The notes under the pieces are model-generated. The model searched no databases, was not told the DNA's origin, and saw only the letters and a program-made list of their open reading frames with translations. A stretch of 64,000 nucleotides of DNA. It comes from a virus. A program made the position numbers and the translations under genes. Every line of letters begins with the position of its first letter. The stretch's first letter is position 1. The DNA lies in the IMG/VR virus record IMGVR_UViG_3300021957_000004; one strand, given 5' to 3'. This document shows, piece after piece, positions 8,734 through 64,000 of this stretch.

Positions 8734-11034
8734 ATGAACGGAACTAATGTAATGGAAATTAAAGTCGCTAAACGAGATGGAACACATCAAACTTTTGATT
8801 TAGATAAAGTACACAAAGTATTGGAATGGGCAGTAGAAGACATAACAGGTGTTTCTATGTCCGAGATAGAAATAAAAGCCAATATCCAATTGTACGATAA
8901 AATCCCAGCTTATGATATACATGAGCTATTAATTAAATCAGCAGCTGAGCTTATCTCAGAACACACCCCAAATTATCAATTTGTAGCAGCAAGGTTAATA
9001 TCCTATAAGCTAAGAAAAGAAGCTTATGGTCAATACAAACCTTTGCCACTTGTTGATATTATAAAACGAAATATTAATTTAGGAGTATATGATAATGCTA
9101 TTCTAAATAGTTATTCAGAAAATGAATTAAACGAATTAGATGCTTATATTAAACACGACCGAGATGATAACTTTACCTATGCAGGTATGGAACAATTTAG
9201 AGGTAAGTACTTAGTCCAAGATAGAAGCACTAAAGACATATATGAAACTCCACAGGTTTTGTATATGATGGTTGCGGCAACTTTGTTTGCTAAATATAAT
9301 GAAGGAAGAATAAAATATGTTAAAGATTATTATGATGCAATATCTCAATTCTATATCTCTTTACCTACGCCGATTATGGCTGGTGTACGTACTCCAACCC
9401 GTCAGTTTTCAAGTTGTGTGCTTATTGAATCTGGCGACAGTCTTGATTCTATCAATGCTACTGCAACTTCCATAGTAAGATATATCTCTAAGAAAGCTGG
9501 TATAGGCATCGGTACGGGCTCCGTACGTGCTGCAGGAGCGCGCGTAGGCGATGGTTCAATAGTTCATACGGGTTTAATTCCATTTTTAAAGTACTTTCAA
9601 TCGGCCGTTAAGTCGTGCTCGCAGGGAGGCGTACGCGGGGGCGCGGCGACCGTGTACCTACCATTATGGCATTATGAGTTTGAAGATCTTGTTGTATTAA
9701 AAAATAACAAAGGTACTGAAGAGAATAGGGTTAGGCATATGGATTATGCTTTCCAATTAAACAAACTAATGTATGAAAGACTTATAACTGGTGGTAATAT
9801 AACATTGTTTGATCCTAATGACGTACCAGGACTATACGATGCATTCTATGAAGACCAAGACAAGTTTAAAGAACTATATGAAAAGTATGAACGTGCATAT
9901 AGTGTAAGAAAGAAAACATTACCTGCTTTAGAAGTATTCCAAGCTTTATTGACAGAAAGAAAAGATACTGGTAGAATATATATTATGAACGTAGATCATG
10001 CGAATGAGCACGGTTCATTTAAACCAGATTTAGCTCCTATCCGTATGAGTAATTTATGTTGTGAAATTGATTTACCAACTAAGCCTTTAGAATATCCAGA
10101 TGATCCAAATGGTGAAATATCTTTGTGTACTCTGTCTGCTATTAATTGGGGATTAATTAATGCACCACATGAATTTAAAAAGTATTGTAATCTAGCAGTT
10201 AGAGCATTAGATGAACTATTAGATTATCAAGACTATCCTATTCAGGCAGCTAAAAAAGGTACTATGAATCGTAGACCTCTAGGTATAGGTATTATTAACC
10301 TTGCTTATTTCTTAGCTAAGCGTGGATTAAAATATGACGAATCTGCATTTGAAGTTGTAGATGAATATGCAGAAGCATGGAGTTATTACTTAATTAAAGC
10401 TTCTTCTAAGCTAGCACGAAAAAAAGGTGCATGTTTATTAAATAATCAAACAAAATACGCGTCTGGAGAGTTGCCAATCGATACATATAAGAGTGCGATA
10501 GATAATTTAACAGAGCATAAAACACGCATGCCATGGGAAGAGCTCAGAACTGATCTCAAAGAAAATGGCATTCGTAATTCGACTCTCATGGCATTAATGC
10601 CCGCAGAAACAAGCGCACAGATTTCTAATAGTACAAATGGTATTGAACCACCAAGAGCTTTAGTATCTTACAAGCAATCTAAGGATGGGGTAATGGCACA
10701 GGTAGTGCCTGGGTATCATCACCTTAAAAACAAGTATGACCTTTTATGGGATCAAAAATCCCCAGATGGTTATTTAAAGATCTGCGCTATTTTACAGAAA
10801 TATATAGATCAAGGTATATCTGTAAACACATCTTATAATCCAGAACATTATGAGGATAATAAGATACCAATGTCTGCTATGATCCAAGATCTAGTGACAG
10901 CTTACAAGTATGGTTTAAAACAACTATACTATTTTAACACACATGACGGCTCAGGCGAAATGAAAGACATTGAATTGCCCGAGCTTGATATTACAATTGA
11001 AGATGACGAGGACTGCGAAAGCTGCAAAATATGA
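8734..11034 (+). CDS. nrdA: Ribonucleotide reductase class Ia alpha subunit
   Basis: N-terminal ATP cone (VAKRDG), FSSCVLI, SCSQGGVRGGA, SNLCCEI, C-terminal CESCKI. Confidence 0.97.
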   Translation: MNGTNVMEIKVAKRDGTHQTFDLDKVHKVLEWAVEDITGVSMSEIEIKANIQLYDKIPAYDIHELLIKSAAELISEHTPNYQFVAARLISYKLRKEAYGQYKPLPLVDIIKRNINLGVYDNAILNSYSENELNELDAYIKHDRDDNFTYAGMEQFRGKYLVQDRSTKDIYETPQVLYMMVAATLFAKYNEGRIKYVKDYYDAISQFYISLPTPIMAGVRTPTRQFSSCVLIESGDSLDSINATATSIVRYISKKAGIGIGTGSVRAAGARVGDGSIVHTGLIPFLKYFQSAVKSCSQGGVRGGAATVYLPLWHYEFEDLVVLKNNKGTEENRVRHMDYAFQLNKLMYERLITGGNITLFDPNDVPGLYDAFYEDQDKFKELYEKYERAYSVRKKTLPALEVFQALLTERKDTGRIYIMNVDHANEHGSFKPDLAPIRMSNLCCEIDLPTKPLEYPDDPNGEISLCTLSAINWGLINAPHEFKKYCNLAVRALDELLDYQDYPIQAAKKGTMNRRPLGIGIINLAYFLAKRGLKYDESAFEVVDEYAEAWSYYLIKASSKLARKKGACLLNNQTKYASGELPIDTYKSAIDNLTEHKTRMPWEELRTDLKENGIRNSTLMALMPAETSAQISNSTNGIEPPRALVSYKQSKDGVMAQVVPGYHHLKNKYDLLWDQKSPDGYLKICAILQKYIDQGISVNTSYNPEHYEDNKIPMSAMIQDLVTAYKYGLKQLYYFNTHDGSGEMKDIELPELDITIEDDEDCESCKI

Positions 11035-12101
11035 TATTAAAGAAAAATAAAAAATCCCATTTAGAAAAGAATATGTTTTTGGATGAAGAAGTAGATATCC
11101 AAAGATTCGATATTTTAAAATATCCAGCACTAGATAAGATTACAGAAAAACAACTAGGATTCTTTTGGAGACCAGAAGAAGTAGATGTGTCAAAAGACAA
11201 AAAAGATTTTAACGGACTAACTTTAAATGAACAACATATTTTCACATCTAATCTCAAAAGGCAAATTTTACTGGACTCTGTACAAGGTCGGGCACCGAAC
11301 CTTGCTTTCCTTCCTATTGCTTCGTTACCCGAGATTGAGAATTGGATTGAAACTTGGAGCTTTTTTGAAACTATTCATAGTCGTAGCTACACCCATATTA
11401 TTAGGAATATCTATCCTAACCCTTCTACTGTTTTTGACGGCATGCTTGATGTAAAAGAAATACTAGAATGTGGAAATGACATAGCACAATACTATGATGA
11501 TCTAATCGATTGTAATAGTTCAGCTACAAATAGAATGCAGCACAAACAAGCTTTATGGATGTGTATGTTATCAGCAAATGCACTAGAAGGAATTAGATTC
11601 TATGTATCCTTCGCGTGCTCGTGGGCGTTCGCGGAACTTAAAAAGATGGAAGGCAATGCTAAGATCATTAAGTTTATCGCAAGAGACGAGAATGTGCATT
11701 TGGCGGCGACCACAACCATAATTAAAAATATGTTAAAAGAAGATCCAGACTTTGTTAAGATACAAAAACAAACAGAAAATGAATCAGTAAATTTATTCGT
11801 AAGAGTTATTGAACAAGAAAAAGAATGGGCTAAGTTCTTATTTAAAAATGGTTCAATGATTGGTTTAAATGAACAAATACTATGTGATTATATAGAGTGG
11901 ATTGGATGTAAACGTATGAGAGCAATAGGATTACCTTGTCCTTATACCGTATCTAAAATGAATCCATTACCATGGACTGAAAAGTGGATTGGCGGTGGTA
12001 ACGTACAAGTTGCTCCACAAGAAACAGAAATAACATCTTATATAACTGGCGGTGTTAAACAAGATGTTGATGATAAAACTTTATCTGGATTAAGCTTATG
12101 A
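11031..12101 (+). CDS. nrdB: Ribonucleotide reductase class Ia beta subunit
   Basis: FFWRPEEVD, ETIHSRSYTH, LEGIRFYVSF, RDENVH, VAPQETEITSY. Confidence 0.97.
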   Translation: MILKKNKKSHLEKNMFLDEEVDIQRFDILKYPALDKITEKQLGFFWRPEEVDVSKDKKDFNGLTLNEQHIFTSNLKRQILLDSVQGRAPNLAFLPIASLPEIENWIETWSFFETIHSRSYTHIIRNIYPNPSTVFDGMLDVKEILECGNDIAQYYDDLIDCNSSATNRMQHKQALWMCMLSANALEGIRFYVSFACSWAFAELKKMEGNAKIIKFIARDENVHLAATTTIIKNMLKEDPDFVKIQKQTENESVNLFVRVIEQEKEWAKFLFKNGSMIGLNEQILCDYIEWIGCKRMRAIGLPCPYTVSKMNPLPWTEKWIGGGNVQVAPQETEITSYITGGVKQDVDDKTLSGLSL

Positions 12102-12316: not shown

Positions 12317-12320
12317 TAAT

Positions 12321-13603: not shown

Positions 13604-14029
13604 ATGGTAAAAGATAATATAATACAGTTTCCAACCCCAGAGCAAGTTAGCAAAAAAGAAGCAGAAGAGATTATAAATCAAGCTTCAAATGAATGCAATG
13701 AACTAGCCCAACATCTTTGTCATGTACTAGCAGAAGAGATATTTGCAGCAGACCATTACTTTGAAGATGCGGAATACTTCGATGAGACTTATCAGGAGTC
13801 TCGAGACATATATGTTATAACAAACTTAATTAACGCAATGTTATTAAGACAACTAGAAATACCACACACATTACAAAGATCGCTAGATAAGCTTTACATT
13901 AAGATAAAGCAGTTAGCACAATTACCAGAGCAAGACTTCGAGGTAAGCTTTGACCCTGAGTTCGAGGTAACATTCGAACCAGATTTTGATATAAATGATG
14001 AGGATGATAAGGATGATACAGATACATAA
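13604..14029 (+). CDS. Acidic hypothetical protein
   Basis: DNIIQFP start; acidic tail with short duplication FEVSFDPE/FEVTFEPD. Confidence 0.65.
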   Translation: MVKDNIIQFPTPEQVSKKEAEEIINQASNECNELAQHLCHVLAEEIFAADHYFEDAEYFDETYQESRDIYVITNLINAMLLRQLEIPHTLQRSLDKLYIKIKQLAQLPEQDFEVSFDPEFEVTFEPDFDINDEDDKDDTDT

Positions 14030-18409: not shown

Positions 18410-19065
18410 TGATAGAATATGATCCAATAGAAATCAATACTGATTTAGAACAACACACAAAAAAGACTGGTAGGTATTATACCGATCCAGATGGTAATAG
18501 ATATTATTCTGTTACAACAGTATTATCCATATTAAATAAAGCAGCTATAATGGCATGGCGCAAGCGCGTAGGAAACGAAGAAGCAAATCGTATATCTTCG
18601 CAAGCTGCTACTCGTGGTACAAAAGTACACGATATGATAGAAAAATATATTGTAGGAGAAGATTTTGCTAAGGATAATTTAGTAGCATTATCTAACTTTA
18701 AAGATATACAACCTATTATAGATAAGAATTTAACAAAAATCCATGCAGTCGAAGCAAGGTTATTCTCTAAGCATTTAGGGTTAGCTGGAACAGTAGATTG
18801 TGTAGGTATTTGGGATGGCAAACTTAGCATTATTGATTGGAAAACATCCAAGAAATTTAAAAAGAAAGAGTGGTGCGAAAACTACTTTATGCAAGCTTCC
18901 GCGTATGCAATTATGTGGGAAGAAAGAACTGGTATACCTATTACTAATTTGGTAGTAGCAATTGCTGGTGACGAAGGTACTCAGATCTTTATTGAACATA
19001 GAGATGACTGGGATAAAAAATTAATTGAAACTATAACAGAATATAATAGGAGAAAAAACAAATGA
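18409..19065 (+). CDS. PD-(D/E)XK exonuclease
   Basis: YSVTTVL, RGTKVH, AGTVDC, IIDWKTS, YFMQASAY. Confidence 0.88.
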   Translation: MIEYDPIEINTDLEQHTKKTGRYYTDPDGNRYYSVTTVLSILNKAAIMAWRKRVGNEEANRISSQAATRGTKVHDMIEKYIVGEDFAKDNLVALSNFKDIQPIIDKNLTKIHAVEARLFSKHLGLAGTVDCVGIWDGKLSIIDWKTSKKFKKKEWCENYFMQASAYAIMWEERTGIPITNLVVAIAGDEGTQIFIEHRDDWDKKLIETITEYNRRKNK

Positions 19066-28164: not shown

Positions 28165-30012
28165 ATGAAATATATAACAACGATTTGGACAAGTATTGCA
28201 CTTTGTATTGCACTTTTAGGCATAAGAGTTTTAGACCCAGTTTTAGTAGAACAATTAAGATTAAATAGTTTCGATCAATATATTCAGAGCTTACCCGACA
28301 AGGAATCCGATGTTGTTCTACTATCATTCGGAGAAGAAACTCTAGCTACATATGGCCAATACCCTTTTCCAAGACATACCTACGCACAACTGATATCAGA
28401 TCTAAGAGCTGCTAACGCTGGGATGATTGGGTTTACTATTATGTTTCCAGAAGCAGATAGGTTTGGTGGTGATGAGGTATTTATTTCCTGGGTAAACAAT
28501 AACGGAGTCATTCTCGCGCAAGACGCGTCCTCTCGCGGGCGCTCGGATACGGCCCCGTACGTGGGTACGGCCACGCTCGGCGAGGGCGACGCGTACGACT
28601 TTGTTCCTAAATATAGTGGGTTAGTAACAAATATAAAAGAATTAGAAGACGCTGCATGGGGTGTAGGATTAATAAATGCAGGTCAAGAAGTAGATAATAT
28701 AACAAGACGGATTCCTTTATTGTCCCAAATAAACGGACAGTTATATCCATCAATGCCTTTAGAAATCATAAGAGTAATACAAGATAAAAAGTCTTATTCA
28801 CTAAAAGCAAACTATGATGGTATAGAAAATGTAATGATTCCACCATATGAACCTATTCAAACAGATTACAATAGTTCTATATGGTTAAATATGAATTATA
28901 CTCATAAAGAATATGAATACGGTAAAGATGTATTACCTAATCTTCAAGGTCAAACAGTCTTGGTTGGTCTAACAGCAAGTGGCCTTGCTTCTCAAATACC
29001 AACTCCTCAAGGTTTGTTCTCTGCTCACCAATTGCAGGCGTCGGCACTTCAGACTGTGATAGATGGGAATTCGATATCTCGTCCTGGTTGGACATACTTA
29101 GTTGAATTGTTAGCTCTCGCCATAGGATCGGTTCTGATTGTTCTAGGGATATATCAGATGTCTGTCTTGACAGGTGCTGTATTCTCCGCCGTGATCGTGC
29201 TTGGCTACTCTGTATATGTTTGGTACGTCTGGACCTCAATGGGTATACTCCTTGATCTAACCTATCCTATAATAGTATATATACTTTCTTTTTCCTCAGC
29301 CGCATTTAATAATTTTTATATACAATTTAAATTAAGACAACAGATTAAAGGTCAATTCTCTACATACCTTTCTCCAGATATGGTTAACATGCTAGTCAAA
29401 GATCCTAGCTTAATGAAGCTCGGTGGTGATAGAAAAGAAATGACATTCCTCTTTATGGATATATGTGGTTTTACCCCTATCTCGGAATACTATAAGAACA
29501 ATGATGATCCAGAAGGATTAGTAGAATTAGTCAATGAATTCCTAGATGCTATGACTACTATCATCTTATCCAACGGCGGAACCATCGATAAATATATGGG
29601 TGACTGTATAATGGCATTTTGGAATGCTCCATTACCTTGTAAGAACCATGCTGAAATGGCAGTTAAGTCAGCAATAGAAATAGAAGAAAAAACAAATGAA
29701 CTTAAAGAACTTTATAAAGAACGTGGCCTTCCCGATATTAACGTTGGCACTGGTGTTAACACCGGCGATTGCATTGTTGGTAATATGGGTAGTAAATCCA
29801 GATTTGATTATTCGGTCATTGGAGATGCAGTCAACCTTGCCGCCAGGCTCGAGGCTACCGCGGCTCGTCATGAGTATGTAGAATACAAAACCATTATATC
29901 ATCCTTCACACAACAACTTCTTCCTCAGGGTTATGTCTCTCATAACATCGGAACCATCAAGGTTAAGGGTAAAGAAGAAGAAATCACTATATATTCCCCT
30001 AAAAAGAAATAG
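28165..30012 (+). CDS. CHASE2-domain class III adenylate cyclase
   Basis: N-terminal TM, GQYPFPR CHASE2 motif, TM bundle, FMDICGFT, DKYMGDCIMAFWNAP, DYSVIGDAVNLAARLE, VKGK. Confidence 0.93.
   Translation: MKYITTIWTSIALCIALLGIRVLDPVLVEQLRLNSFDQYIQSLPDKESDVVLLSFGEETLATYGQYPFPRHTYAQLISDLRAANAGMIGFTIMFPEADRFGGDEVFISWVNNNGVILAQDASSRGRSDTAPYVGTATLGEGDAYDFVPKYSGLVTNIKELEDAAWGVGLINAGQEVDNITRRIPLLSQINGQLYPSMPLEIIRVIQDKKSYSLKANYDGIENVMIPPYEPIQTDYNSSIWLNMNYTHKEYEYGKDVLPNLQGQTVLVGLTASGLASQIPTPQGLFSAHQLQASALQTVIDGNSISRPGWTYLVELLALAIGSVLIVLGIYQMSVLTGAVFSAVIVLGYSVYVWYVWTSMGILLDLTYPIIVYILSFSSAAFNNFYIQFKLRQQIKGQFSTYLSPDMVNMLVKDPSLMKLGGDRKEMTFLFMDICGFTPISEYYKNNDDPEGLVELVNEFLDAMTTIILSNGGTIDKYMGDCIMAFWNAPLPCKNHAEMAVKSAIEIEEKTNELKELYKERGLPDINVGTGVNTGDCIVGNMGSKSRFDYSVIGDAVNLAARLEATAARHEYVEYKTIISSFTQQLLPQGYVSHNIGTIKVKGKEEEITIYSPKKK
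28513..28599. other. CpG-dense synonymous patch inside the cyclase gene (one of at least 8)
   Basis: 25 of 29 codons end in G/C in an otherwise A/T-ending gene. Confidence 0.8.
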
Positions 30013-33285: not shown

Positions 33286-34467
33286 ATGGCACTTAAAAAA
33301 TTAAATAAGAAAAGAATCTCGATGAGGAAAGATAGAGTTTCTTTAGATGCAAAGATGATGGGTCCAGAACCTCTCTTCACAGAAGAAGATGGACACATGG
33401 ACATTGAAGAACAATACGATGGAAAGATTGGCCGAAAATGGGCTAAAGCTTCCAGATGGTATAATTACTTTTATCAAAACAAAGATTACCTTCCACACGC
33501 AGTAGACTTTCTAAGAGATGTATATGGTTGGGATGATGATAAGTTAAAAGTCTTTTTACGTTTACCCGATTATACAATTAGAAGAGTCGGTGGGGTTGGC
33601 GTTATATGGTCAAGAGGTTACAAATATGATCCATTGTTTATCGAAGGCTTTAAACCTATTACTGATGAACTATATGAAAAAGCTACTTTATTAGAAGAGC
33701 AAAGAGTAGAAGCAGTAAAAGAAAAACCTAAAATGCCTAGTATACAAGAAAGAACTAGAGCAAAGGTATTAGAAACCATTTATATGGAATTTGATGTTAA
33801 CGTAGTTGATGAATGGATGGAAGGTAATTATAAAGTTGACTTCGAAGCATTCTCTCTATTTAAAAACTTTGGATTAAAAGGTAATGCTATTTCTATATTC
33901 CAAGACATGATCGATGTAGAATATCTAGGACTAAAAGAAGCATACGATAAAACATGTCCTGATTGTGTAGAAGCTTATTCACACATTACGAAAGGCAATA
34001 AAAAGAAAATGCTCAACGTATACGACAATATTTATTCTGACCTTGATAAACTTAAAGATAGCTTTAAAGCGACGCGTAAGGCGCGTGTACGTGTCCCTAG
34101 GAGCAACGAACAACAGGTATCTAAGTTAAACTATATGAAAGAAGACTTAGCAGCTAAGTTAACATCTATTAATCCTATCCTTATTCCAACCGCATCTAAG
34201 CTATATGTTTATAATGTTAAACAAGGTAAGCTTGCAGAATACACTGCATTAGATGCTAAGGGTTTCGAGATCGCTGGATCTACTATTAAGAACTATGATA
34301 CTAAACTAAGTAAAATAACTAAGTTAAGAAAGCCAGAGGAAATACTACCGCTTATTCTAAACAAAACAGAAAAGCAAATACTAAAAGTATGGAAAGGATT
34401 AACAACAAAGATTTATGAACCAACAGGCCGAATCAACAAGGACTGTATTTTAATGAGAGTAATATAA
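33286..34467 (+). CDS. Conserved hypothetical protein upstream of gp33
   Basis: 393 aa; C-terminal KLRKPEE...GRINKDCILMRV. Confidence 0.7.
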   Translation: MALKKLNKKRISMRKDRVSLDAKMMGPEPLFTEEDGHMDIEEQYDGKIGRKWAKASRWYNYFYQNKDYLPHAVDFLRDVYGWDDDKLKVFLRLPDYTIRRVGGVGVIWSRGYKYDPLFIEGFKPITDELYEKATLLEEQRVEAVKEKPKMPSIQERTRAKVLETIYMEFDVNVVDEWMEGNYKVDFEAFSLFKNFGLKGNAISIFQDMIDVEYLGLKEAYDKTCPDCVEAYSHITKGNKKKMLNVYDNIYSDLDKLKDSFKATRKARVRVPRSNEQQVSKLNYMKEDLAAKLTSINPILIPTASKLYVYNVKQGKLAEYTALDAKGFEIAGSTIKNYDTKLSKITKLRKPEEILPLILNKTEKQILKVWKGLTTKIYEPTGRINKDCILMRVI

Positions 34468-36279: not shown

Positions 36280-36300
36280 CTAATAGATCTTACGATCGGA

Positions 36301-42834: not shown

Positions 42835-44140
42835 TGTAAGCAGTAGATCCGTCGAAGGCGTTGATGGAAATATAACCCCTGATTCTTATATATTGGAATC
42901 AGTTAAGTTCTTTCCTAACTCTGGTAAAAAAGAAATTGATATTAAATCTTTCGTACAACAACTAGAATTCTATGAAGATATTAATACGCCTTTTATTGAA
43001 GGTATCATTTATATACAAGATGCTGCTAACTTCCTAGAAGAACAAAAAGTAAATGGTAATGAAAGATTAGAGGTTAAAGTAAAAAGAACTCCTCTCGATG
43101 GTACACAAGAAAAAGTTTCTAAATTCGAATTAACGTTATATATTGCAGAAGTATTTAACTTTGTTCGAGAAGCACCAGGTAAACAATTCTATAAATTTAG
43201 AGTCGTATCAGAACAGTTATATAATAACCAAGGTAAAACATTACAAAGATCTTTTCAAGGATCTATAGGTAAATTAGTAAAAGACATTTGTAAGAAAGAT
43301 CTTAAGATAAATGCTAAACTAAACCTAGACACTAAAGATATTATTAAAGGGGTTTATCCAACGCTAAGACCTATTCAAGCTATTAATTGGTTATTGAAAA
43401 ATGCATACGATAACGGTACACCTTATTATTTCTATGAAACATTAAAAGATGGATTACATTTTAATTCATTAGAGAATTTATACGAGCAAGAACAATATGA
43501 GGAATATGAATTCCTTCCTTATTTTAAACATGACATCGGAACAAGTGGTTCTTATAACGAAATAAGAAAAAGAATAATAGCTTTTGGTAGTGATTTAGGT
43601 ATGGGTAAGTTAAATGATGTTGGTTCGGGTGCGTACGCGAGCACGCTCCATACGGTCGACCTCGCGAAGAAATCATATAAGAAAACATTTTATAACTACG
43701 ATTCAGCTAACCCAAAAAAATTAAACAAAAATAAACCATTTAGCGATAACACTAAAATCTTAGATAGAAACTTAGTTGATCTAAAAGAAGGAAAGAACTA
43801 TTTTATTTCTTTAAATAGTGAAGCATTTCCTTTACACAAGAATTACCACGGTCCAGCTTATACCACAATATTAAAATCAGAATCACATTTACAAACATTA
43901 GGATTTAATACCCACACGATAGCTTTACCAGGGGATTTTGGTTTATGTGTTGGATCTAAAATAGGTATTGTTACAATCAAGCCGACAACAATAGAAGATG
44001 CAGATCAAGCCCCAGTTATGTTAGATAAATACACAGGTGGAAATTACTTAGTCACAAGAATAGTACATAAGTTTGATGACTTCTATACACAAAAATTAAC
44101 TATACAAAGAGATTCAAGTGGGGTAAGTGTAGATGCGTAA
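42827..44140 (+). CDS. Baseplate hub / tail protein (gp27-like position)
   Basis: YEDI..PFI.G, YYFYET, G.YLVTRIVHKF; lies between gp53 and gp5. Confidence 0.6.
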   Translation: MSSVSSRSVEGVDGNITPDSYILESVKFFPNSGKKEIDIKSFVQQLEFYEDINTPFIEGIIYIQDAANFLEEQKVNGNERLEVKVKRTPLDGTQEKVSKFELTLYIAEVFNFVREAPGKQFYKFRVVSEQLYNNQGKTLQRSFQGSIGKLVKDICKKDLKINAKLNLDTKDIIKGVYPTLRPIQAINWLLKNAYDNGTPYYFYETLKDGLHFNSLENLYEQEQYEEYEFLPYFKHDIGTSGSYNEIRKRIIAFGSDLGMGKLNDVGSGAYASTLHTVDLAKKSYKKTFYNYDSANPKKLNKNKPFSDNTKILDRNLVDLKEGKNYFISLNSEAFPLHKNYHGPAYTTILKSESHLQTLGFNTHTIALPGDFGLCVGSKIGIVTIKPTTIEDADQAPVMLDKYTGGNYLVTRIVHKFDDFYTQKLTIQRDSSGVSVDA

Positions 44141-47232: not shown

Positions 47233-49610
47233 TGTCACACGATAAAGAATATAGCTCACCAGGATACGTAGAAACCGTAGTGTCTTCTAAGAAGAAAACA
47301 AAAGAGCATATTAATTATAAACAATTAGTTCCATCAGAGATATTACAAAACTCCTCTAGGATGGAATCTTTGATGAAGTCATATTATACCTTTATGAATT
47401 TAGAGGAGTTTATATATTCACAAACTAAAACATTTACAGATGTTGTGCTAGATGATAAAGCAGTATTTAGAATATTGGATCCAAAAAACGAGAATGATGA
47501 ATTCTTTACAGATGAAACAGGTGCTGAATCTACATTAGTTATAACTGATACCGATGGAACAACTACCCCAATCTCTTTAGATCCACAAAACGTAGCAATT
47601 ACAAATGGTAATGAATTACCTGGAACCTTAGCTATAGAAACATCTGAAATTGGTAAAACATATACTGTTACTGGTTTATCAACACATAATTCTAAAACAG
47701 CAACATTAACTACAGTGATTAAAAACTGGGTTGGACCAGGACCTTCGAACGTAATGAATACAATCGAAGAAGCTATGGATATAGATGGCAATGCTTCTAA
47801 CTATTTAGAGTTTATGCAAAAAGAAATAGCATCAGCTATTCCAAGAGACGTAACAGTTAACAAAAGAAATTTATATAAGAATATAATTGATTTTTATAAA
47901 GTAAGGGGATCAAGTGATAGTATAGAAATATTCTTTAGATTATTATTTAATGAAGTGGTAGAAGTAGAAAGACCTTACGATAAAACATTAATACCTTCAA
48001 GTGGTAACTGGGATTCAGGATCAAATGCATTCTTGGATAACAAAGGATTTTTATCAGATAGAATAAGAATACAAGATAGTTTAAGATATCAAAAGTTTAG
48101 TTATTTAATTAAAACTGGTAAAAATATTTCTGATTGGTCAGATGCTTTTACAAGATTAGTTCATCCAGCAGGTTTTAAATTCTTTGGCGAGATTTTATTG
48201 CTATTAAACTTTGTTAATATAGGTACGGTAAACAATAAAAAAATGATGAGTACTCTGGCCAGATTATTTTCTGCAATGCCAGGTATACAACCAGGTGTAA
48301 TTGGGGTTGAAGATTTACCAGTATTAGTGGAAATGTTTGCATCTGCTTTCTTACCACAGGTCACAGCGAATATTCACCAAAGTGCTACACTTTCTACCTC
48401 ATTAAAGAATGGGGTAATTACCGGATCATCTATTACTAATGGTGGTACTGGATATATAGTAAATCCAACACTGACATTCTCTGATGGCTCTAGTGGAAAA
48501 ACAATTCCTGTAGGTGCCGCGGCGGGGACAGATGGTTTTGGTACCGTAAATTCTATTGGATTAGGTGATGGTGGAAGAGATTTCCAAGCACCAACTGCAA
48601 CATTTTCTGCACCAGAACAACATGTATTTAATGGATCAAGTTCATCTATAGTGAGTACATCAGCTAACACTATAACATTAACTGCTCCACAAGCAGCAGT
48701 ATTCCAGGCAAATGATCAACTAACATATACAGCTGATGTTGGTGCAATACCAGGTTTAGTATCTGGAACAGCTTATTTTGTTAAAACTAAAGTGGGTAAT
48801 GCTATAACCTTATCCGCAACAGTAGGTGGAGCAGTAATTAGTCTAACAGGGGTAGGAAGTGGAGCAGTTCACAAATTCCAAGGTGTAACAGCTACAGCAA
48901 CATTTGTAAAAACAGATGGTTTACTTGATGTTGTAACGATAGATCAACCTGGATTTGGATATTCATCTGCACCGACTGTTGGACTCAATGGTACTGGTAC
49001 TAATATGAATAATCCAGTTGTGACACTTACTATTGATTCTAAGGGAAGAGTCAATGGTGTAACTATTTCAGATAGGGGTTCTGGTTTCAACACTATATTC
49101 TTAACCCCAACAGGTAATACAAACGTAGGTAAAATAGCTGCTATAAATATAATTGAAGGCGAACCTAAAAATTATAGAGTTGCTCCTACGTTAATAATTG
49201 ATCCTCCGACTGCTAAAGATGCAGATGGAGAATTATCAGGAACAAATGTACAGGCAGTAGCTACATTACCTTTAGATGGTAATGGAAACTTAACTGGCTC
49301 AGCAGCAATATCTAATTTTGGTAATGGTTATATATCAGAACCCCAAATTAGATTAGGAAGTCAAGTACATAACGAAATTCGTGCTAAGGATGTACAAGAT
49401 ATATTAATACTATATCTAAACCATAAGGAAGATCGTAGTGAAACACTTGATGAAACACATCTATTTGATCTAAAAGCCCCGTTTGATACAACGGCAAGGT
49501 TATACGATCAAAATGGAACTTTAGAACATTTTGGGTCCACAGAGATCCAAAACATGAATACAACTAGTATAAATAGATATAACGTGAACAGTTTTGTTCA
49601 TACAGATTAG
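47232..49610 (+). CDS. Baseplate wedge gp7-like
   Basis: FYKVRGS..SI..FFRLLF, IQDS..YQKFSY, VHPAGFKFFGE; G.GY...PT repeats. Confidence 0.7.
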   Translation: MSHDKEYSSPGYVETVVSSKKKTKEHINYKQLVPSEILQNSSRMESLMKSYYTFMNLEEFIYSQTKTFTDVVLDDKAVFRILDPKNENDEFFTDETGAESTLVITDTDGTTTPISLDPQNVAITNGNELPGTLAIETSEIGKTYTVTGLSTHNSKTATLTTVIKNWVGPGPSNVMNTIEEAMDIDGNASNYLEFMQKEIASAIPRDVTVNKRNLYKNIIDFYKVRGSSDSIEIFFRLLFNEVVEVERPYDKTLIPSSGNWDSGSNAFLDNKGFLSDRIRIQDSLRYQKFSYLIKTGKNISDWSDAFTRLVHPAGFKFFGEILLLLNFVNIGTVNNKKMMSTLARLFSAMPGIQPGVIGVEDLPVLVEMFASAFLPQVTANIHQSATLSTSLKNGVITGSSITNGGTGYIVNPTLTFSDGSSGKTIPVGAAAGTDGFGTVNSIGLGDGGRDFQAPTATFSAPEQHVFNGSSSSIVSTSANTITLTAPQAAVFQANDQLTYTADVGAIPGLVSGTAYFVKTKVGNAITLSATVGGAVISLTGVGSGAVHKFQGVTATATFVKTDGLLDVVTIDQPGFGYSSAPTVGLNGTGTNMNNPVVTLTIDSKGRVNGVTISDRGSGFNTIFLTPTGNTNVGKIAAINIIEGEPKNYRVAPTLIIDPPTAKDADGELSGTNVQAVATLPLDGNGNLTGSAAISNFGNGYISEPQIRLGSQVHNEIRAKDVQDILILYLNHKEDRSETLDETHLFDLKAPFDTTARLYDQNGTLEHFGSTEIQNMNTTSINRYNVNSFVHTD

Positions 49611-51238: not shown

Positions 51239-54200
51239 ATGGCAACAAGCAAAGTTAAAAACTATAACATCCCACCATACTACGATGATTTTGATGAAAC
51301 AAAAAATTATCATAGGATCTTATTTAGACCAGGATATGCAGTACAAGCAAGAGAATTAACACAATTACAAACTGCTTTGCAATCTCAGATAGATCGATAT
51401 GGTCAGTATGCATTTAAAGATGGTTCAAGGGTATTGGATGGTAAGGTTACAGTTAATACTAAGTATGACTTTATTAAACTTAAATCTTCTTTTGATCACA
51501 GCGTTGGAGGATCATTAAATACAGATACTTACTTATCAGACTTTTTAGGATCAACTATTACTGGTTATGCTAATGGTACAAACAAAGTTACCGCAAAGGT
51601 AATAGGATTTGAAACTAAAACAGATGCTTCTAATCCAAACACTTTATATATTTCATATGAAAGTAAAGGTGGAAATGATAGAGACGTTGGTACGTTCGTA
51701 GGTGATGAAGAAATTATTTCGGATGCAAATACAGTTTCAGGTAATGTTCGATACGGTGAATTAGTTGCTAATAGTGGCACACCAACAGGATATGGTTCAG
51801 CTGTTAACGTAGAGCAAGGCGTATACTTTATTGCAGGTACATTTGTTTATGTAGAAGCACAATCTTTAATTTTAGATAAGTATACAAATACCCCAAGTTA
51901 TATTGTTGGTTTATCAGTCACAGAGAATTTAGTTTCTTCTGATACTTCTGGCCATTCAGCATTGGTTGATAATGCTGCAGGTACTCCTAACTTTGCAGCT
52001 CCAGGCGCAAATAGATATCAGATCTCCACATCTTTAGTAAAAGAACCTTTAGCAATTGCTTCTAGATCAACAGGAAATTATATTCCATTGGTCACAGTGG
52101 AATTAGGAAAAGTCCAATTCGATAAAACAGATAAGAATAATGACACTGCCCTTACTCGTAGATTAGCAAGACGTACTTTTGAAGAGTCTGGAAATTACGC
52201 AGTACAACCTTTTGAATTAAACATTAGAGAATATTTAAATGATGGTTCAAATAAAGGATATAAAACAAATACACAAATCGTAGCAGACGGAGATGCAGGA
52301 AGTAATTCAGCTGGTACAACATTTGGTTCTTCTAGATTAGCAGTTGGTGTAGAACCATCAGTAGCTTACGTGAAAGGATTCAGGAATGAAAACCTTGCAA
52401 CTAAATATGTTAAAGTAGAAAAGCCAAGAGGAGCAGATGCTACTAATGATGTTAATAATGCTACAACACAAATTAGATTAGGAAATTATATTAGATTAAC
52501 TAATTCAACTATTTCTGGTATACCAGATATTAATAATTTCACGCCAATTACTTTACTGAATCAATCTGGTTCTAATATTGGAACTTGTCGTGCAAGAGGT
52601 ATGGAACAACCTATAATAGGTACAAGTGGATATACAGCATTATATATTTTTGATATTGCTATGACTGGCGGAGCTACATTTAATCAGGTAAGAGCAGTTT
52701 CACAAGCAGGTACACCAGCATTTTCAGCACATTTAATTAATAAGACTGGATCAGTTGGTCCATCTCCACAACCATCTGCAAATTCAGATGCATTAATATA
52801 TGATTCTGGTTTTAGTTCATTAGTATATAAATTACCATACGATGCAATAAAATCACTTAACACAGCAAGTGAAGATACTATCTTTAGATCAAAAGAATTG
52901 TTTACAGGAACTTCAGATGGATCAGGTAGTATAACATTCTCAGTATCGGGAACAAATACATTTGTTGATAGTGATGATAACTTAATTTTTGCAACAGGTG
53001 GAAACTTTGGACAACTAGCTAATTCCGGTGGAACGTATAACTATACTACATCGAACACAACTACACTTACAATTGGTGGACTTCCAACAAGTGCTGTTAT
53101 TAAAGTATTAGCAACAGTGCAAAGAAACGAAGCAGCTATTCCCAAGACAAGAGTACCCAATGCAACAAAGGCAGCTACAGTAAGTTCTGGTTATATTGGA
53201 TTAGCAAAAGCAGATATCATTCGAATAGTTTCTATCACAGATGGAAACAGCCTAGATGTTACAGAAAGATTTTCATTAGATAACGGCCAAAGAGATAATT
53301 ATTACGGAGTAGGTAAAGCAGTTCTTAAACCTAACTTCCCAACTCCAACCGGGACATGTACAGTCACATTTGATTATTATTCACACGGTGCAGGTAAATA
53401 TTTCTCAGTAGATTCTTATCCAGCATTAGATTATAGTACTATACCAACTTTTACGGGTATTAATGGGGAATTACAACTAAGAGATTGTATTGACTTTAGA
53501 CCAAGAAAAGATGATAACGATGCAAACTTTACTTCTTCTGGTTCAGCATTAACTGTTGCACCACATCCATCTTCTACATTGACTGCAGATATAACATACT
53601 ATATGTCACGTATCGATAAGCTATATGTAAACAGAGAAGGCGAATTCTTAATAGAAAAAGGTGTTCCATCAGATATTCCTAGTTCACCAGAAGTACCAGA
53701 TGATGCAATGGCATTATATGACTTACAACTTAAGCCATACGTATTTTCTTTATCAGATATAAAACCTAGAATTATTGATAACAAACGTTATACAATGAGA
53801 GATATAGGTGGATTAGATAAACGTATTAAAAATTTAGAATATTATACTTCATTATCTTTGCTAGAACAAAGTGCAGCTGATGCTCATATAGTAGATGCAG
53901 CTGGATTAAGCAGATTCAAAAATGGATTCTTAGTAGATTCATTCCGTGGACATCAAGTTGGTGATACTGCAAATAATGATTATCAGGTATCGATTGATAA
54001 GAATAATGGATTACTTAGACCTAAGTTTGATGAAAGAAGTGTTAACCTAATTAGAAAAAGCGGTGATTCAGGTTCAGTAGTAATTAGTTCTTCATTAGCT
54101 CATTTACCTATAGCATCGAATACAACTATTATCGAACAACCGTACGCGAGCTCGTACGTAAACGTAAACCCGTATAACGTATTTTCCTGGGATGGTGTAG

Positions 54201-56739: not shown

Positions 56740-59700
56740 TGGCCGAAAATAAAGAAACCAGAATATTAAAATCAAGTTCCATTGAAGAACTCAGACAAAA
56801 GTCTAATGAGATTTCCTTTGGATTAGGGGATAAAACTTTATTAGATTCAGATATATCTGATAAGGTATTTAGTCATACGGCAGCAGCTGGTGATTATTTA
56901 GTTTCTCCTGCAACTACAAGGTTTGAATATAAACCTGAAGAGACAATTGATAATACTGCAGGATATATCCTTTTAACTGGAAGTCCTACGGTTGGTGCAG
57001 GTTTTTCAGCAGGTTCAGCGGTCACACAAAGTGGAGGATATTCCGCTACTATAGTAAGTGCTTCTACTAATAAAATTCTTGTAAAGAACTCCAGTGGAAC
57101 ATTTAGTTCTAGTTCTACATTAACAGCTGGTTCAAGTACAATTGCAGGTTCTGCTATTCGAAGCTTAGTTGCTGAATCATACAAAAAAGCAGAAGTAATT
57201 GTAAAAGTAGGATCAACAGTTTATACCCAAGACTCTACCTCTACTACTGGATTTCATATACCAAATCATGCAGGATCAGTCACACTTACTGGAAGTCCTG
57301 ATGTATCGGATTTTGAAGAAGGCGCAGTTGCATATCAAGGATCAAACCTTGCAAATGCTACTTGGCAAGGAACAATTTTAGATTGTTCTTCTACATTATT
57401 AAGAACAAAAACAGTTTCTGGTTCATTTAGCGCATCAACACAAATAAAAGTTGATGGTGGTACAGATACAATTGCAGGATCAAACCATGGCGATATAACA
57501 AACGAAGATGTAACATTTGGAAAACTTATTGAATTTAATACTCCGTTAAGTGTAAATGATGCAGTTGTAATTACATCAACAAATTTAGTAGATGCTATTA
57601 ACGAAGTACAAGATGATATTGGTACAATCAGTTCATTAGCTTCTGGTATATCAAATAGAACAGACTTAGTAAATGCTACCAACTCTCTTAAAACAGAAAT
57701 CGGTACAGCTTCTCTAGACACATCAGCAAATTCATTAAGAGGTGCAGTTAATGAACTACACACAGAAATAGTTTCTAATGATACAGATATTGCTACAATC
57801 AATACTAAGCTTGGAACAATTACAGCAGGAGCATTTGGAACGACAGCATCGACAGTAAGTACTGCAATCGCAGAATTACATACTGACGTAGATGCTAGAT
57901 TGATGTTAACGAAAGGAACATCACAAACAATTAATGGTAATATATCATTTAGTAACGGTAAAACATTTACATTCCCATCGGGATCTACACTAGATATAAG
58001 ACAAGGTTCTATATTAACTGGATCTGGTGGTGGTGAATTAACATTTGATACCGCATTCTTAACCCTGATAGCTAATGATACAACAGCAGCTGTTAACCAA
58101 TTTGGTCTGGAAGGACGAAGAGTTGGTTCAGGTAAAGATGTAAGAATACAATTTAATGAAACCCAAGTCACTGGAAACAAAGAAGCAAGAGCATGGCAGT
58201 TACAAGGATTAGATGATTCTAATGCTTCAAACACTGCCGATATAGTTACATTCTATAATGCTAAAGAATTAGTTTCCAGTAATACAGAAACAGGTATTGA
58301 TGTAACATGGGATTCAACAAATCAAAACTTTGATTTTGCTTTATCAGCAGATCCAACTATTACATTGGCTGGCGATTTAGGTGGAACAGCAACATTAACT
58401 AATTTAACAAGTGCTACATTAACAGCAACTATTCAGGCTGGTTCAGTTGAGAATAGTATGTTAGCTGGTGGTATTACTAATGCTAATTTAGCTGGTAGTA
58501 TTGCAAATGCTAAATTAGCTAATCCAAGTATTACAGTAAGTGATGGATCAAATACAAGTCCAGTTGCTTTAGGTGGAACATTAACATTCGCAGGAACATC
58601 AGGCGAAGTAACGGTAGCAGAAAATGCTGGAACAGTTACAGTTGGATTACCTGATAACGTAACAGTTGGTGGTAACTTAACAATTACTGGTAACTTAGAT
58701 GTTAACGGAACACAAACAACTATTAATACATCAACATTAGAAATAGATGATACATTAGTATTAATGGGAGCTTCAAATTCAGAACCAACAACAGGTGGTT
58801 TCGGTTTAGAAACAAGAAGCTTCACGGGCGTAGGCACGCACTCGAATAATGCAGCAAACGTAACTGGTTCACACTCTATTGTATATAACTTTGCAACAGA
58901 TAGATGGGAAGCAGATGGTTCATTAATATTATCAAGTGCTACCCAAGGTGCACCTAAAATTGAAGGACAGTTATTTGAATCCAATGATAATTTACAATTC
59001 TCAGCTGGCTCAGGTTTAACCGAATCAGTTTCAGTATCAGGTCTTAACACAACCGTTACATATACAAACTCAGATAAAGGTTCTGATGTAATGACCTTTA
59101 AAAATGTAGCTTCAAGTTCAGGTACTGCGGTTGCAGATAATAATACTGACACACTTACTATACTAGGTGGTAATGATTTATCAACATCAGTAAGTGGAGA
59201 CACATTAACGATTCAACATGATAACTCGGGCGCAAATGCAGGAAGTTATGGAGCACAACATACTGTTCCAAGCATTACAGTAGATGCAAGAGGTCACGTA
59301 ACAAGTATTTCTAATAATAGTGCAATCACACTTTCTTCATTAGGTTATACAGGTCAAACAAACGCAAATAATTATTCATTTAATATTGACGGTGATAGTG
59401 GAACATCTAACGTTATATCCTCTGGAGAAACATTTGAGATAGAAGGTGGAACTCACTGTTCAACCGTAGTTGAATCTAACAAAATTATTATTAATTCTGT
59501 AAATACCGAATATGACACATCCACTGGGTTAACAGATAATAACTTTACAAATGCATTAAAAACTAAACTAGATAATATAGCAGGCAGTGCGAATAACTAT
59601 TCATTTTTAATTGGGTGTAATGGAACAAGTGGAACTTCTACAATAAACAATGGTAATACTTTAACTGTTAATGGTGCAGGAGCAACCAGTGTTACTAGAT

Positions 59701-60965: not shown

Positions 60966-60966
60966 T

Positions 60967-62508
60967 ATGGCAGCTTTAACAAGAATTAAAATATTAAATA
61001 CCGCGTCCACAAGTTCGGCGCCAACTAATATTTACACAGGGGAAATGGCGTATTCTTACGTTACTGGAACCCAAGCAAATAATGGAGACAGGTTATACAT
61101 TGGTACTGGTACTGAGAACCCATACGCTCCAAACGTAGACATTATCGGTGGTAAATACTTTACCGAAATGTTAAATCACGTACACGGTACGACAACAGCA
61201 TCGAGTGCATTAATTACAGATGCTAACTCTCATGTTAGTGCTTTAAATACAGCAACATTTAAAGTTGCAGCTACAGGGTCATTAGGATCTGCAGTTGGTA
61301 TTACCAGTATCTTAGATGAAGATAATTTAGCTTCTGATAGTGCTACAGCACTTGCTACTCAACAGTCAATTAAGGCTTACGTTGATACAATTGTAGATGC
61401 ACAAGACTTAGATATTACTACGGATTCAGGTACAATAGCAATTGACCTTGATGATGAAACATTAACCATTTCAGGTGATACAGGTATATCAACAACTGCT
61501 AGTGGAAACGCTATTGAAATAGATCTAGATGATACAGCAGTAACAGCAGGATCTTACGGTTCACAAACAGCTATACCAACATTCACAGTTGATCAACAAG
61601 GTCGATTAACAGCTGCTTCAACAGTAACAGTTGCTACAGCATTAACAGTAGATGGTGATTCAGGAACAGGCGATGTATCCTTATTAACAGATGATTTAAG
61701 AATCGTTGGTACAGCTCAAGAAGTTACAACAGCGGTAGCTAAATCAGGTACAGACGTAACGGTCACCGTTGGTTTACCAAATGACGTTACTATTGGATCA
61801 GATTTAACAGTTACAGATAACTTAGTTGTTAACGGGAACGTAACATTAGGTAATGCTACATCAGACACAGTTCAAACTGGCGGTAATTTAACAGTTGGTG
61901 GTGATCTTACAGTTAACGGTACAACAACATCAGTTAACTCAACTACTACTACTTTAACAGATCCAGTTATTGAATTAGCTAAAGATACTTCTGCAGCAGA
62001 TGGTCTTGATCGTGGTGTTAGTTTCAAATGGCATAACGGTTCAGCAGTTAAAACAGGTTTCTTTGGATTTGATATACAAACTCAAAGGTTCTCCTTCACT
62101 AACGATGAAGATCTATCAGGTGGAGATAATGCTTCCTCACCATGGCATGATGCACAATTCGGTGGAGTTTACGCAGGTAATGTCCAAGTTGGTATTACAG
62201 GCGATAATGAGATCGATACAACCTCTGGCAATTTAACAATTGATTCAGCTGGTGGTACAACAACTATTGATGATATATTAACCGTAACAGGTGCAGCATC
62301 AGCAGCTAGTTTAACACTTACAACAGATTTAGCAGTAGCACATGGTGGTACTGGATTAAGTTCATTCACTGGTAAAGGTGTATTTACATCTAACTCTGGT
62401 GGTACAGCAATTGATTTTGTTACATCTTCTGCAGAAGGTGCAATAATGCAGTTTAATAGTTCTGGTGTACCTATTGCTTCTGTCATCGTAGATGGTGGAA
62501 CATACTAA
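60967..62508 (+). CDS. Tail fibre protein
   Basis: GE.AYS N-terminal module, ATQQSIKAYVD, VTAGSYG...TVDQQGRLT, ends DGGTY. Confidence 0.8.
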   Translation: MAALTRIKILNTASTSSAPTNIYTGEMAYSYVTGTQANNGDRLYIGTGTENPYAPNVDIIGGKYFTEMLNHVHGTTTASSALITDANSHVSALNTATFKVAATGSLGSAVGITSILDEDNLASDSATALATQQSIKAYVDTIVDAQDLDITTDSGTIAIDLDDETLTISGDTGISTTASGNAIEIDLDDTAVTAGSYGSQTAIPTFTVDQQGRLTAASTVTVATALTVDGDSGTGDVSLLTDDLRIVGTAQEVTTAVAKSGTDVTVTVGLPNDVTIGSDLTVTDNLVVNGNVTLGNATSDTVQTGGNLTVGGDLTVNGTTTSVNSTTTTLTDPVIELAKDTSAADGLDRGVSFKWHNGSAVKTGFFGFDIQTQRFSFTNDEDLSGGDNASSPWHDAQFGGVYAGNVQVGITGDNEIDTTSGNLTIDSAGGTTTIDDILTVTGAASAASLTLTTDLAVAHGGTGLSSFTGKGVFTSNSGGTAIDFVTSSAEGAIMQFNSSGVPIASVIVDGGTY

Positions 62509-62597: not shown

Positions 62598-64000
62598 TTG
62601 GCACGTAAAACGAACATACAACTGAGGCGTTCAGCAACAGCTGGAGGCATTCCAACTACAAGTAATCTAGACTTAGGTGAATTAGCGCTTAATACCTACG
62701 ACGGTAAAGCGTATATGAAGACCACGGAGTCTTCTCTTGATAGTATAATTCAGATTGGCTCCGCAACAGATACTTATCATAAGATAAGAAAAGGTAATAC
62801 AATAACTATTACCGTCACCGTTGCTACAAAAACAACATCGCACCCACATCATGGATCTGGTTCAAGCTCAGCATACTTTTTAAATGGTATTGAATCACCT
62901 CATTTCCATATGGTTCCTGGGAACACATATAAGTTTGATCAAGCAGATAGTTCCAACTCTGGTCATCCATTAAGATTCTATTATGAAGCAAATAAATCAA
63001 CTGCTTATAGTACAGGTATTACGACATCTGGAACGCCAGGAAGTTCAGGCGCGCATACAACTATTGTACCTACTGATGCTACTCCAATGGTATTACATTA
63101 CCAATGTTCAGCACATGGATATATGGGTGGTAGATCAGATTATGCTACAAGAAACTTTACTGGATTTAATACAGGTGATTTAGCAGAAGGGACAAATCTA
63201 TATTACACAGACGCTAGAGCAAGAGCCTCAATTAGTGTAAGTGGAGATTTATCCTATAATAGTTCAACAGGTGTTATATCTTTTACAGAAACAACAGCAG
63301 CTACAACTCGTGCATTAATATCAGTCACAGATGCTGGTGGAGATGGTTCATTAGCATATAATAACACCACGGGCGTGATCACGTACACGGGTCCGAGCGC
63401 GAGCGAGGTGCGAGCGCACATCTCCGCGGGTACGGGCGTAACAGTTTCTAATGGTGCTATATCAATAGGACAAGCAGTTGCAACAACTTCTGATGTAACC
63501 TTTAATGATTTACAAGTAGATGGTAATACAATCATCACTGGTAACTTAACGGTTAATGGAACAAGTACAACTTTAAATGTTGCAACATTAGATGTAGAAG
63601 ATTTAAATATAACAGTTGGTAAAGCAGCAACAACAAGTTCAGCAACTAACGGCGCAGGACTTACATTTGGTGCTTGGTCTTCAGGTACTATACCTACATT
63701 TACATGGGATCATGCTAACCAAAGATTTGCAGCTAACTATGCTATTGCAGCTAATATTACAGGTGCATTAACAGGTAATGCAGATACAGCTACTACATTA
63801 GCTACAGCAAGAACTATATCAGGTGTATCATTTAATGGTTCAGCTAATATAACACTAAACACTTCTGCAATAACAGAAAATACTAATCTATACTATACCA
63901 ATGCTCGAGCAGATGCTAGAATTGCAGCGGCAAGTTTACTAGATTTAAGTGATGTTGGTTCTGACGGAACAAACGGTCAAGTACTAACAACAGATGGTAG
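62598..64000 (+). CDS. Long tail fibre protein, 3'-truncated (not in ORF track)
   Basis: AGGAG RBS, TTG start, MARKTNIQLRRS...GELALNTYDGK; HPLRF...YQCSAHGYMG; EGTNLYYTDARA repeats; TATAAATA at 62510. Confidence 0.85.
   Translation, partial: MARKTNIQLRRSATAGGIPTTSNLDLGELALNTYDGKAYMKTTESSLDSIIQIGSATDTYHKIRKGNTITITVTVATKTTSHPHHGSGSSSAYFLNGIESPHFHMVPGNTYKFDQADSSNSGHPLRFYYEANKSTAYSTGITTSGTPGSSGAHTTIVPTDATPMVLHYQCSAHGYMGGRSDYATRNFTGFNTGDLAEGTNLYYTDARARASISVSGDLSYNSSTGVISFTETTAATTRALISVTDAGGDGSLAYNNTTGVITYTGPSASEVRAHISAGTGVTVSNGAISIGQAVATTSDVTFNDLQVDGNTIITGNLTVNGTSTTLNVATLDVEDLNITVGKAATTSSATNGAGLTFGAWSSGTIPTFTWDHANQRFAANYAIAANITGALTGNADTATTLATARTISGVSFNGSANITLNTSAITENTNLYYTNARADARIAAASLLDLSDVGSDGTNGQVLTTDG
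63363..63437. other. CpG-dense synonymous patch inside the tail fibre gene
   Basis: 22 of 25 codons end in G/C. Confidence 0.8.

Follow-up and report, generated by a model that had tools for sequence, protein, structure and literature searches.

Short CpG-rich islands punctuate the AT-rich genes of a T4-like marine phage, and the evidence supports their being a DNA-level feature laid over coding sequence. We analyzed a 64,000-nt stretch (the window) of IMG/VR virus record IMGVR_UViG_3300021957_000004, corresponding to bases 58452-122451 of a 130,478-bp viral contig with a GC content of 35.5%, a CpG observed/expected (o/e) ratio of 0.71 and a genome-wide fraction of G/C-ending codons (GC3) of 0.22. 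The gene content of the contig fits a T4-like marine myophage. Among named phages it is closest to Pelagibacter phage HTVC008M, to which it is 71% identical at the nucleotide level in part of the cyclase gene discussed below. We tentatively favor, with a probability of about 0.4, the reading that the islands are clustered recognition sites for a putative sequence-specific DNA-binding or DNA-modifying protein of this lineage. No description of CpG islands of this kind was found in the literature searched. The contig resembles group C of a pelagimyophage survey in its two thymidylate synthases (TS) and dCMP deaminase, membership in that group being only a likeness; the survey leaves CpG islands unmentioned (PMC7029224).

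Clustered CpG-forming codons and a shared word

In 42 windows of 12 codons, 10 or more codons end in G/C, compared to 0.2 such windows in 200 synonymous-codon shuffles, where the maximum per window is usually 9. Codon-shuffled controls, which a preliminary description of the window had proposed as a check, thus do not yield comparably extreme windows. About 24 islands, plus one GC-rich tRNA gene, are present in the 130-kb genome. They are composed of its rarest codons (NCG 5-8%, CTC 3%, CGC 2%), and 30 of the 62 CGCG tetramers fall within the 1,049 bp that they occupy. Since the CpG total of the genome (2882) matches that of codon-shuffled genomes (2868), rare CpG-forming codons are clustered but not in excess. 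The preliminary description had listed nine patches, all of which lie where it placed them, each with 50-74% GC and 4-19 CpG. Its codon counts are exact (16 of 19 G/C-ending at 9601-9657 in nrdA, 13 of 15 in the hub gene), and the words it named recur as claimed: CGTACG at 9522, 9630, 28556, 28592, 43632, 54141 and 54153, ACGGGCGT at 58824, 63369 and 63432, and CTCGCG/CGCGAG at 28513, 28532, 43636, 43661, 54145 and 63398. Among the weaker patches that it had suspected, those at 29826-29875 and 48502-48546 are real and the one at 18540-18590 is marginal, while 61160-61210 barely rises above background. A spacing of 5-10 kb, noted for several patches, is not a regularity, as the distances have a coefficient of variation of 0.87 and are indistinguishable from random placement (P = 0.36).

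Codon choice within islands favors NCG over NCC (56:17), CTC over CTG (9:0), CGC over CGG (8:0) and GGC over GGG (13:3), indicating that the bias is directed at CpG and not merely at GC. Dinucleotide o/e values are 1.61 for CG, 0.61 for TG, 0.51 for CC and 0.70 for GG, with CpA depleted as well, and CpG steps at codon junctions number 52 compared to 44.8 in controls (P = 0.008).

The islands share words of 11-15 nt in either orientation and in different reading frames. Four pairs of 12-mers, counted in both orientations, are common to different islands compared to 0.3 in controls recoded with unchanged peptides and with codon usage as in islands (P < 0.003). Four islands, those of gp16, uvsW, the TS homologue and the cyclase, carry a CGCCCGCGAGAG-type word in three different frames or orientations, two on each strand; it is translated as Ala-Arg-Glu-Ser, Thr-Arg-Glu-Ser, Leu-Ala-Gly and Ser-Arg-Gly. 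Motif discovery on the patches, another proposed check, was positive: Gibbs sampling identified a word of about 10 bp, CTCGCG-K-R-Y-G, in 15 of 15 strong islands, in either orientation and in forms including CTCGCGGGCG and CTCGCGTACG, with an information content of 9.5 bits compared to 7.9 ± 0.25 in controls. CTCGCG itself occurs 15 times, 11 of them inside islands, whereas shuffled genomes contain 4.5 ± 2.1 copies. No single 6- or 8-mer dominates genome-wide, and palindromes are not enriched beyond codon usage.

Two genes illustrate how the word is held. In gp43, CTCGCGTAC is kept among diverged relatives while the GC-rich flanks vary. In the TS homologue, lineages with the island encode Leu-Ala (CTC GCG) where island-free lineages have NL, SL, LQ or VQ. 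The protein was thus altered to make the word. The presence of the word in either orientation and in different frames, combined with changed amino acids, points to a constraint acting at the level of double-stranded DNA. The suggestion of a DNA-level signal overlaid on coding sequence is consequently upheld as regards the level, through frozen synonymous sites, words crossing frames and orientations, altered amino acids and a lack of RNA structure; the islands may be a signal, with biased repair as an alternative. Among the candidates in the preliminary description, target clusters for binding or modification are plausible.

Islands in related phages and in the window

We compared the islands with IMG/VR relatives (80 for nrdA, 80 for the cyclase and 13 for the hub gene) and found the same islands at the same codons in independent contigs. 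Alignment of homologues, suggested earlier to see whether patches keep their position, shows that they do so in nrdA, the cyclase, hub, gp43 and TS genes, and an assembly artefact is at odds with their recurrence in independent assemblies. The nrdA island over SCSQGGVRGGAAT is nearly letter-identical in the 13 closest contigs (L001-L013), which come from different samples and have 85-100% NrdA identity. More distant lineages (L014-L080) use A/T-ending codons at this site and carry weaker GC3 patches at other codons. The other nrdA island (9504..9558) is kept in L001-L005 and is weaker in L006-L013. Five relatives with 75-82% protein identity share the cyclase island; among five members of the lineage synonymous identity is 0.97 in the island compared to 0.4-0.8 elsewhere along the gene. 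Ten relatives with 69-74% amino-acid identity retain GGTGCGTACGCG, the core of the hub island. None of 45 4-fold sites in islands has both G and C among relatives, whereas A<->T swaps prevail outside the islands. Close relatives within the lineage also differ by gains and losses of islands, and the left end of the cyclase island shows stepwise extension in the window, L081 and L082 compared to L083-L085.

These observations bear on the idea that the islands arose by import of short segments from GC-rich homologues in a host or a different phage, or by chimeric assembly. Abrupt changes in composition would fit such an origin, as would the location of several islands over universally conserved motifs, the sites most open to homeologous exchange. 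However, exact 24-mers from the nrdA and cyclase islands are absent from all 185,579 prokaryotic species genomes searched, and 50,697 phage records gave only generic nrdA homology (ca. 72% identity) and, for the cyclase island, chance matches of about 25 nt. The collections searched therefore contain no nucleotide-level match to a GC-rich donor; such a match was among the outcomes that the preliminary description had named as refuting its reading. The codon usage of the islands is also unlike that of typical GC-rich bacteria in that CTG is absent, islands grow stepwise in situ, and independent metagenomes carry the same ones. Mobile GC-cluster insertions are ruled out, no indel being present at islands in alignments of 78 cyclase and 14 hub sequences. 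Shared codons in independent contigs, together with the lack of indels and of a donor, indicate that the islands are not artefacts, insertions or imports, and we consider an imported or chimeric origin scarcely credible. A 14-mer scan of viral contigs mostly returned GC-rich phages matching by chance; the AT-rich contigs were orthologues of the gp16 and TS islands (L174, L201, L215, L176), along with L181, L197 and L250, presumably chance matches.

Island density is lineage-specific. Per 100 kb, the genome has 18 islands and G005, a 28.5-kb contig from within the lineage, has 28, compared to 3 and 7 in the distant relatives G001 and G004 (128-139 kb) and 2 in T4 (first 50 kb). HTVC008M has 5 per 100 kb (100 kb analyzed), four of the five being Gly GGC repeats, and CTCGCGKRYG has no occurrence in four relatives of 120-139 kb. 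Islands with this word are a sharp sequence marker for one pelagimyophage lineage. At 55099-55671 of HTVC008M (L295:5099-5671) the only GC-rich patches are GGC-repeat glycine runs in one gene, which differ from the CpG islands.

RNA-level explanations fit poorly. Folding of seven islands, four of them on the minus strand as well, gave z-scores between -0.68 and +1.32 for 11 of 12 folds when compared to dinucleotide shuffles, with only the plus strand of the cyclase island folding better than shuffles (z = -2.3), and Rfam has no match at any island. These folds and the presence of words on both strands led us to reject a structured RNA element. Overlapping genes were rejected as well, there being no consistent long open frames over the islands in other frames, as was selection for translational accuracy, residue conservation being unrelated to GC3 in nrdA, the cyclase and the hub gene. 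Clusters of rare codons are a known phenomenon and could pause ribosomes, for example for co-translational folding. All islands are indeed runs of the genome's rarest codons, yet equally rare synonyms are not interchangeable (GCG over GCC, no G<->C swaps), the same words are found in different frames and on the antisense strand, amino acids are altered to build the word, and the conservation of residues is generally unlinked to GC3. The signal of the islands thus differs from that of rare-codon clusters in being nucleotide-specific and independent of frame and strand, leaving ribosome pausing with a very slight chance of being correct. The preliminary description had also noted alternating purine-pyrimidine steps and proposed Z-DNA-prone torsion sinks. 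Alternating runs of at least 8 nt do total 142 nt compared to 105 nt (P = 0.008), a modest increase, but the longest run of 12 nt is ordinary (P = 0.76) and TG/CA is depleted, which argues for such sinks only faintly.

Two island-bearing genes show block-wise similarity to relatives. The CHASE2 adenylate cyclase gene (window 28165-30012) is extremely mosaic: within 2 kb, blocks with 100% nucleotide identity to L081 alternate with others at 50-55%. In nrdA, a stretch of about 150 nt (window 9475-9640) matches L002 and L003 at 100% and extends over the two islands together with the AT-rich sequence that separates them; its flanks are ca. 80% identical on the left and ca. 90% on the right, so that it resembles a recent conversion tract.

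Table 1. CpG-rich islands located in the window, and one island from elsewhere in the genome (window coordinates unless marked genome; GC3 given as G/C-ending codons of all codons).
Island	Coordinates	Strand	Composition, words and other features
nrdA island 1	9504..9558	.	65% GC, 8 CpG; GCTCCGTACGTGC, inverted copy in another island of the genome
nrdA island 2	9601..9666	.	over motif SCSQGGVRGGAAT; 16/19 GC3, 11 CpG; core GGCGTACGCGGGGGCGC
nrdB island	11598..11654	.	over iron-ligand motif; word variant CTCGTGGGCG; common to 12 relatives
CHASE2 cyclase island (longest)	28495..28607	.	25/29 GC3, 19 CpG; CTCGCG twice, CTCTCGCGGGCG, CGTACG twice
Weaker cyclase island	29826..29875	.	over motif GDAVNLAARLE; site GC-rich in many lineages
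Island	34068..34098	.	65% GC, 6 CpG; ACGCGT and GCGCGTG
Island in the gene called hub in the preliminary description	43619..43681	.	13/15 GC3; CGTACGCGAGC and inverted CTCGCG
Weak island	48502..48546	.	60% GC, 4 CpG
Island in 1757-aa structural gene	54131..54181	.	CCGTACGCGAGCTCGTACG; 11-mer in common with hub island
Short island	58814..58849	.	TTCACGGGCGT
Island in 1204-aa structural gene	63363..63444	.	22/25 GC3, 13-14 CpG; CACGGGCGTGATC, inverted copy in gp47 island
Island in small-terminase gene	genome 13804-13861		15-mer recurs in another gene

Other features of the contig are distinct from the islands. A GC-rich inverted repeat between convergent genes (window 36293-36321, GGGGTGCGAAAGCGCCCC) is probably a terminator rather than a coding island. 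No tRNA genes were found within the window; a tRNA-like GC-rich stretch with the T-arm GGTTCGATCC lies before it at genome 44974-45050. The ATP-dependent DNA ligase gene (window 13995-15125) has no counterpart in G001, G004, G005 or HTVC008M. A class-3 lipase-like gene (window 7612-8370) has none in G001, G004 or HTVC008M, while G005 encodes one with 78% identity.

A co-occurring operon and the possible origins of the islands

In the favored reading the islands are lineage-specific double-stranded-DNA elements superimposed on codons, each 25-100 bp long, GC-rich with CpG favored, and built around at least one copy of the ca. 10-bp word. A force on the nucleotide sequence itself creates and holds them and can override amino acids at tolerant positions, and their placement inside indispensable genes prevents their deletion. 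They might be sites of dense modification, of programmed nicking or cutting in recombination-dependent replication or packaging, or of protein loading. As candidate reader we would point, as a guess, to a nuclease-like and methyltransferase-like pair that heads a putative pyrimidine-modification operon.

This operon is located at genome 45406-49664, 12.8 to 8.8 kb before the window start, and encodes in order a nuclease-like protein (170 aa), an overlapping methyltransferase-like protein (303 aa), a small protein, the TS homologue, an AsnB-like amidotransferase and a dCMP deaminase. The leading pair occupies genome 45406-46807, about 12 kb before the window, with an overlap of 23 nt. The 170-aa and 303-aa proteins, the TS homologue and the AsnB-like amidotransferase are absent from G001, G004 and HTVC008M, while the 115-aa small protein and the dCMP deaminase have relatives in G001 (38% and 58% identity). 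In the 170-aa protein D68, D77, K79 and E80 are invariant, and its structural model (predicted local distance difference test score, pLDDT, 84) resembles PD-(D/E)XK restriction enzymes such as NhoI, SwaI, DpnI and EcoRV (Z 5-6.9) as well as I-Ssp6803I (Z 6.0), suggesting a PD-(D/E)XK nuclease-like protein. The 303-aa protein appears amino-methyltransferase-like from its sequence.

We compared the operon with loci L313 and L316-L348. Unrelated phages contain the trio of methyltransferase-like, TS and AsnB genes as well, suggesting that it forms a module for pyrimidine hypermodification. The open reading frame just upstream of the methyltransferase-like gene (L316-L338) encodes nuclease-like proteins of 150-190 aa from at least two to three unrelated families, among them A with FAD..IDFKE and B with D..EVEIK; L334 and L344 have no such frame. 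Restriction-modification and defence modules likewise combine a variable partner with a conserved gene, here nuclease-like next to methyltransferase-like.

Across 28 contigs that carry the methyltransferase-like gene, island density averages 20 per 100 kb. Among AT-rich contigs, to which the comparison of module and islands was confined by leaving out two module-bearing contigs at 43-44% GC, 2 islands were counted over 76 kb where the nuclease-like gene is lacking and 21 per 100 kb where it is present, in few and non-independent lineages. A general rule linking module and islands was rejected, as module-bearing contigs without islands exist.

Several points weigh against recognition sites read by this pair. 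The word is degenerate and matches poorly in the islands at genome 3840 and 4345 and at window 58818, and islands conserved over their full 70-100 bp would be unusually long as the site of one protein. Genomes with restriction-modification systems usually avoid their own sites instead of clustering them. The nuclease-like protein has only moderate fold matches (Z of at most 6.9, Foldseek E no better than 0.008), and the 303-aa protein matches PF01555 (E 5e-8) over the S-adenosylmethionine (SAM)-binding motif only. L334 and L335 carry the methyltransferase-like gene with 0 islands in 14 kb each, and L345, L346 and L351 carry the module with 0 islands in 54 kb. The link between operon and islands is only a co-occurrence, confounded by phylogeny, and hence a lead and not proof.

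Biased repair offers a different origin. Islands could be a functionless by-product of context-dependent repair or conversion, a drive analogous to very-short-patch repair: in heteroduplexes of co-infecting relatives, mismatches beside CpG or GC-rich words would be fixed towards C/G, so that islands nucleate, grow at their edges and homogenize. Stepwise edge growth in sub-lineages, as at the left end of the cyclase island, agrees with this, as do depleted TpG and CpA alongside enriched CpG, the gain and loss of islands among close relatives, and rampant recombination, seen in the 100%/55% blocks of the cyclase gene and the ca. 150-nt identical block over both nrdA islands. The 23-nt overlap of the nuclease-like and methyltransferase-like genes recalls vsr, which overlaps dcm. 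However, T:G-to-C:G correction cannot make the transversions and multi-step codon changes that are needed (CAA to GCG in TS; CTC 9:0 over CTG). Moreover, conservation is stronger in the word than in the GC-rich sequence flanking it, neither a Vsr nor a C5-methyltransferase family is present in the 130 kb analyzed, the methyltransferase-like protein being of the amino type, and island flanks are not divergence breakpoints. Because transversions, multi-step changes and a conserved word are left unexplained, we favor recognition sites and consider a repair by-product unlikely. A GC-biased gene conversion hot spot was rejected on the basis of CpG-specific choice and the lack of G<->C swaps and of flank discordance (three genes, a small sample).

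The islands might instead act physically and not through recognition of their sequence. Were the operon to replace cytosine with a bulky or charged derivative, modification of the two strands would be densest there, and the islands could serve as shields or roadblocks against nucleases or as places where DNA condensation starts. In CpG steps cytosines are distributed evenly between the strands, GG/CC runs are avoided, patch-poor relatives lack the TS homologue and the AsnB-like amidotransferase of the lineage, which also has a dCMP deaminase, and the recurrence of its methyltransferase-like trio in unrelated phages is what a modification module would show. Yet such a role would not need exact letters, while relatives show no G<->C swaps and retain a specific word; some module-bearing phages have no islands, and the cytosine modification is itself only putative. 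We regard a purely physical role as quite improbable. We judge it highly unlikely that the islands are GC-rich identity anchors for homologous recombination or annealing between diverged co-infecting phages, in the manner of a modular-exchange linker. They are the most identical stretches between relatives, the genes that carry them are highly mosaic, and by nearest-neighbor energies CG and GC steps form the most stable duplex, but the difference in divergence between the left and right sides of islands is no greater than at random positions (rank P 0.90 for the cyclase, 0.19 for nrdA and 0.98 for hub) and the shared word and TA enrichment would be left unexplained.

A more specific form of the recognition-site reading is doubtful: the CpG-rich islands in essential genes of this pelagimyophage lineage may be read by the nuclease/amino-transferase pair on hypermodified-cytosine DNA, as programmed sites for self-nicking or cutting that would initiate recombination-dependent replication or packaging, or as marks of dense modification that would set the phage's DNA apart from that of hosts and competitors. 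If so, they would constitute a genome-wide phage cis/trans system with no described counterpart. Any islands that are read by a protein would represent a genome-wide DNA-level code in abundant ocean phages, invisible to ordinary annotation, that would tie together base hypermodification, sequence recognition and genome processing. Were they to stem from biased repair, they would be among the clearest cases of a non-adaptive drive reshaping viral codons and even amino acids. In either case, strong synonymous constraint in phage genes need not mean RNA or translation.

Comparison with known systems

GC clusters in yeast mitochondrial DNA are likewise short GC-rich patches with shared sequence families in a very AT-rich genome. 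They are mobile insertions and mostly intergenic, whereas the phage islands are associated with no indels and encode homologous residues. The footprints of GC-biased conversion and of Dcm-Vsr in E. coli share with the islands an enrichment of weak-to-strong (W->S) changes, raised CpG, lowered TpG, homogenization and a nuclease-methyltransferase gene overlap. The islands differ in needing transversions and a specific conserved word, with no Vsr, C5-methyltransferase or breakpoint signal. With respect to type II restriction-modification modules, two adjacent genes encode the 170-aa protein, whose best fold matches are restriction enzymes (Z 5-6.9), and the 303-aa protein, which matches PF01555 over its SAM motif only. 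With respect to homing endonucleases, GIY-YIG, HNH and HNH_3 families, like those of Vsr and C5-methyltransferases, were not found in the 130 kb of this ca. 72% complete genome, while the PD-(D/E)XK-like protein resembles I-Ssp6803I (Z 6.0).

Cis-acting signals inside phage genes include P22 pac in gene 3 and T4 sequences in genes 16 and 19. As in those cases, the islands would be a DNA signal embedded in an open reading frame, and one of them lies in the small-terminase gene; they number about 24 instead of one or two, and no evidence ties them to packaging. Further parallels are recognition words dispersed over bacterial genes, namely matS, Noc- and SlmA-binding sites, DNA uptake sequences and Chi. 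The island word differs from these in lying inside a CpG-rich island of 25-100 bp, in being carried by a lytic T4-like phage and in having only a candidate reader protein, and it differs from Chi in its mixed orientation. Like them, it is a short word at tens of places, mostly coding, that is kept against synonymous drift and would be read as DNA. As in dispersed recognition sites, the word is present beyond the expectation from composition and coding and is conserved at orthologous positions while neighboring synonymous sites drift.

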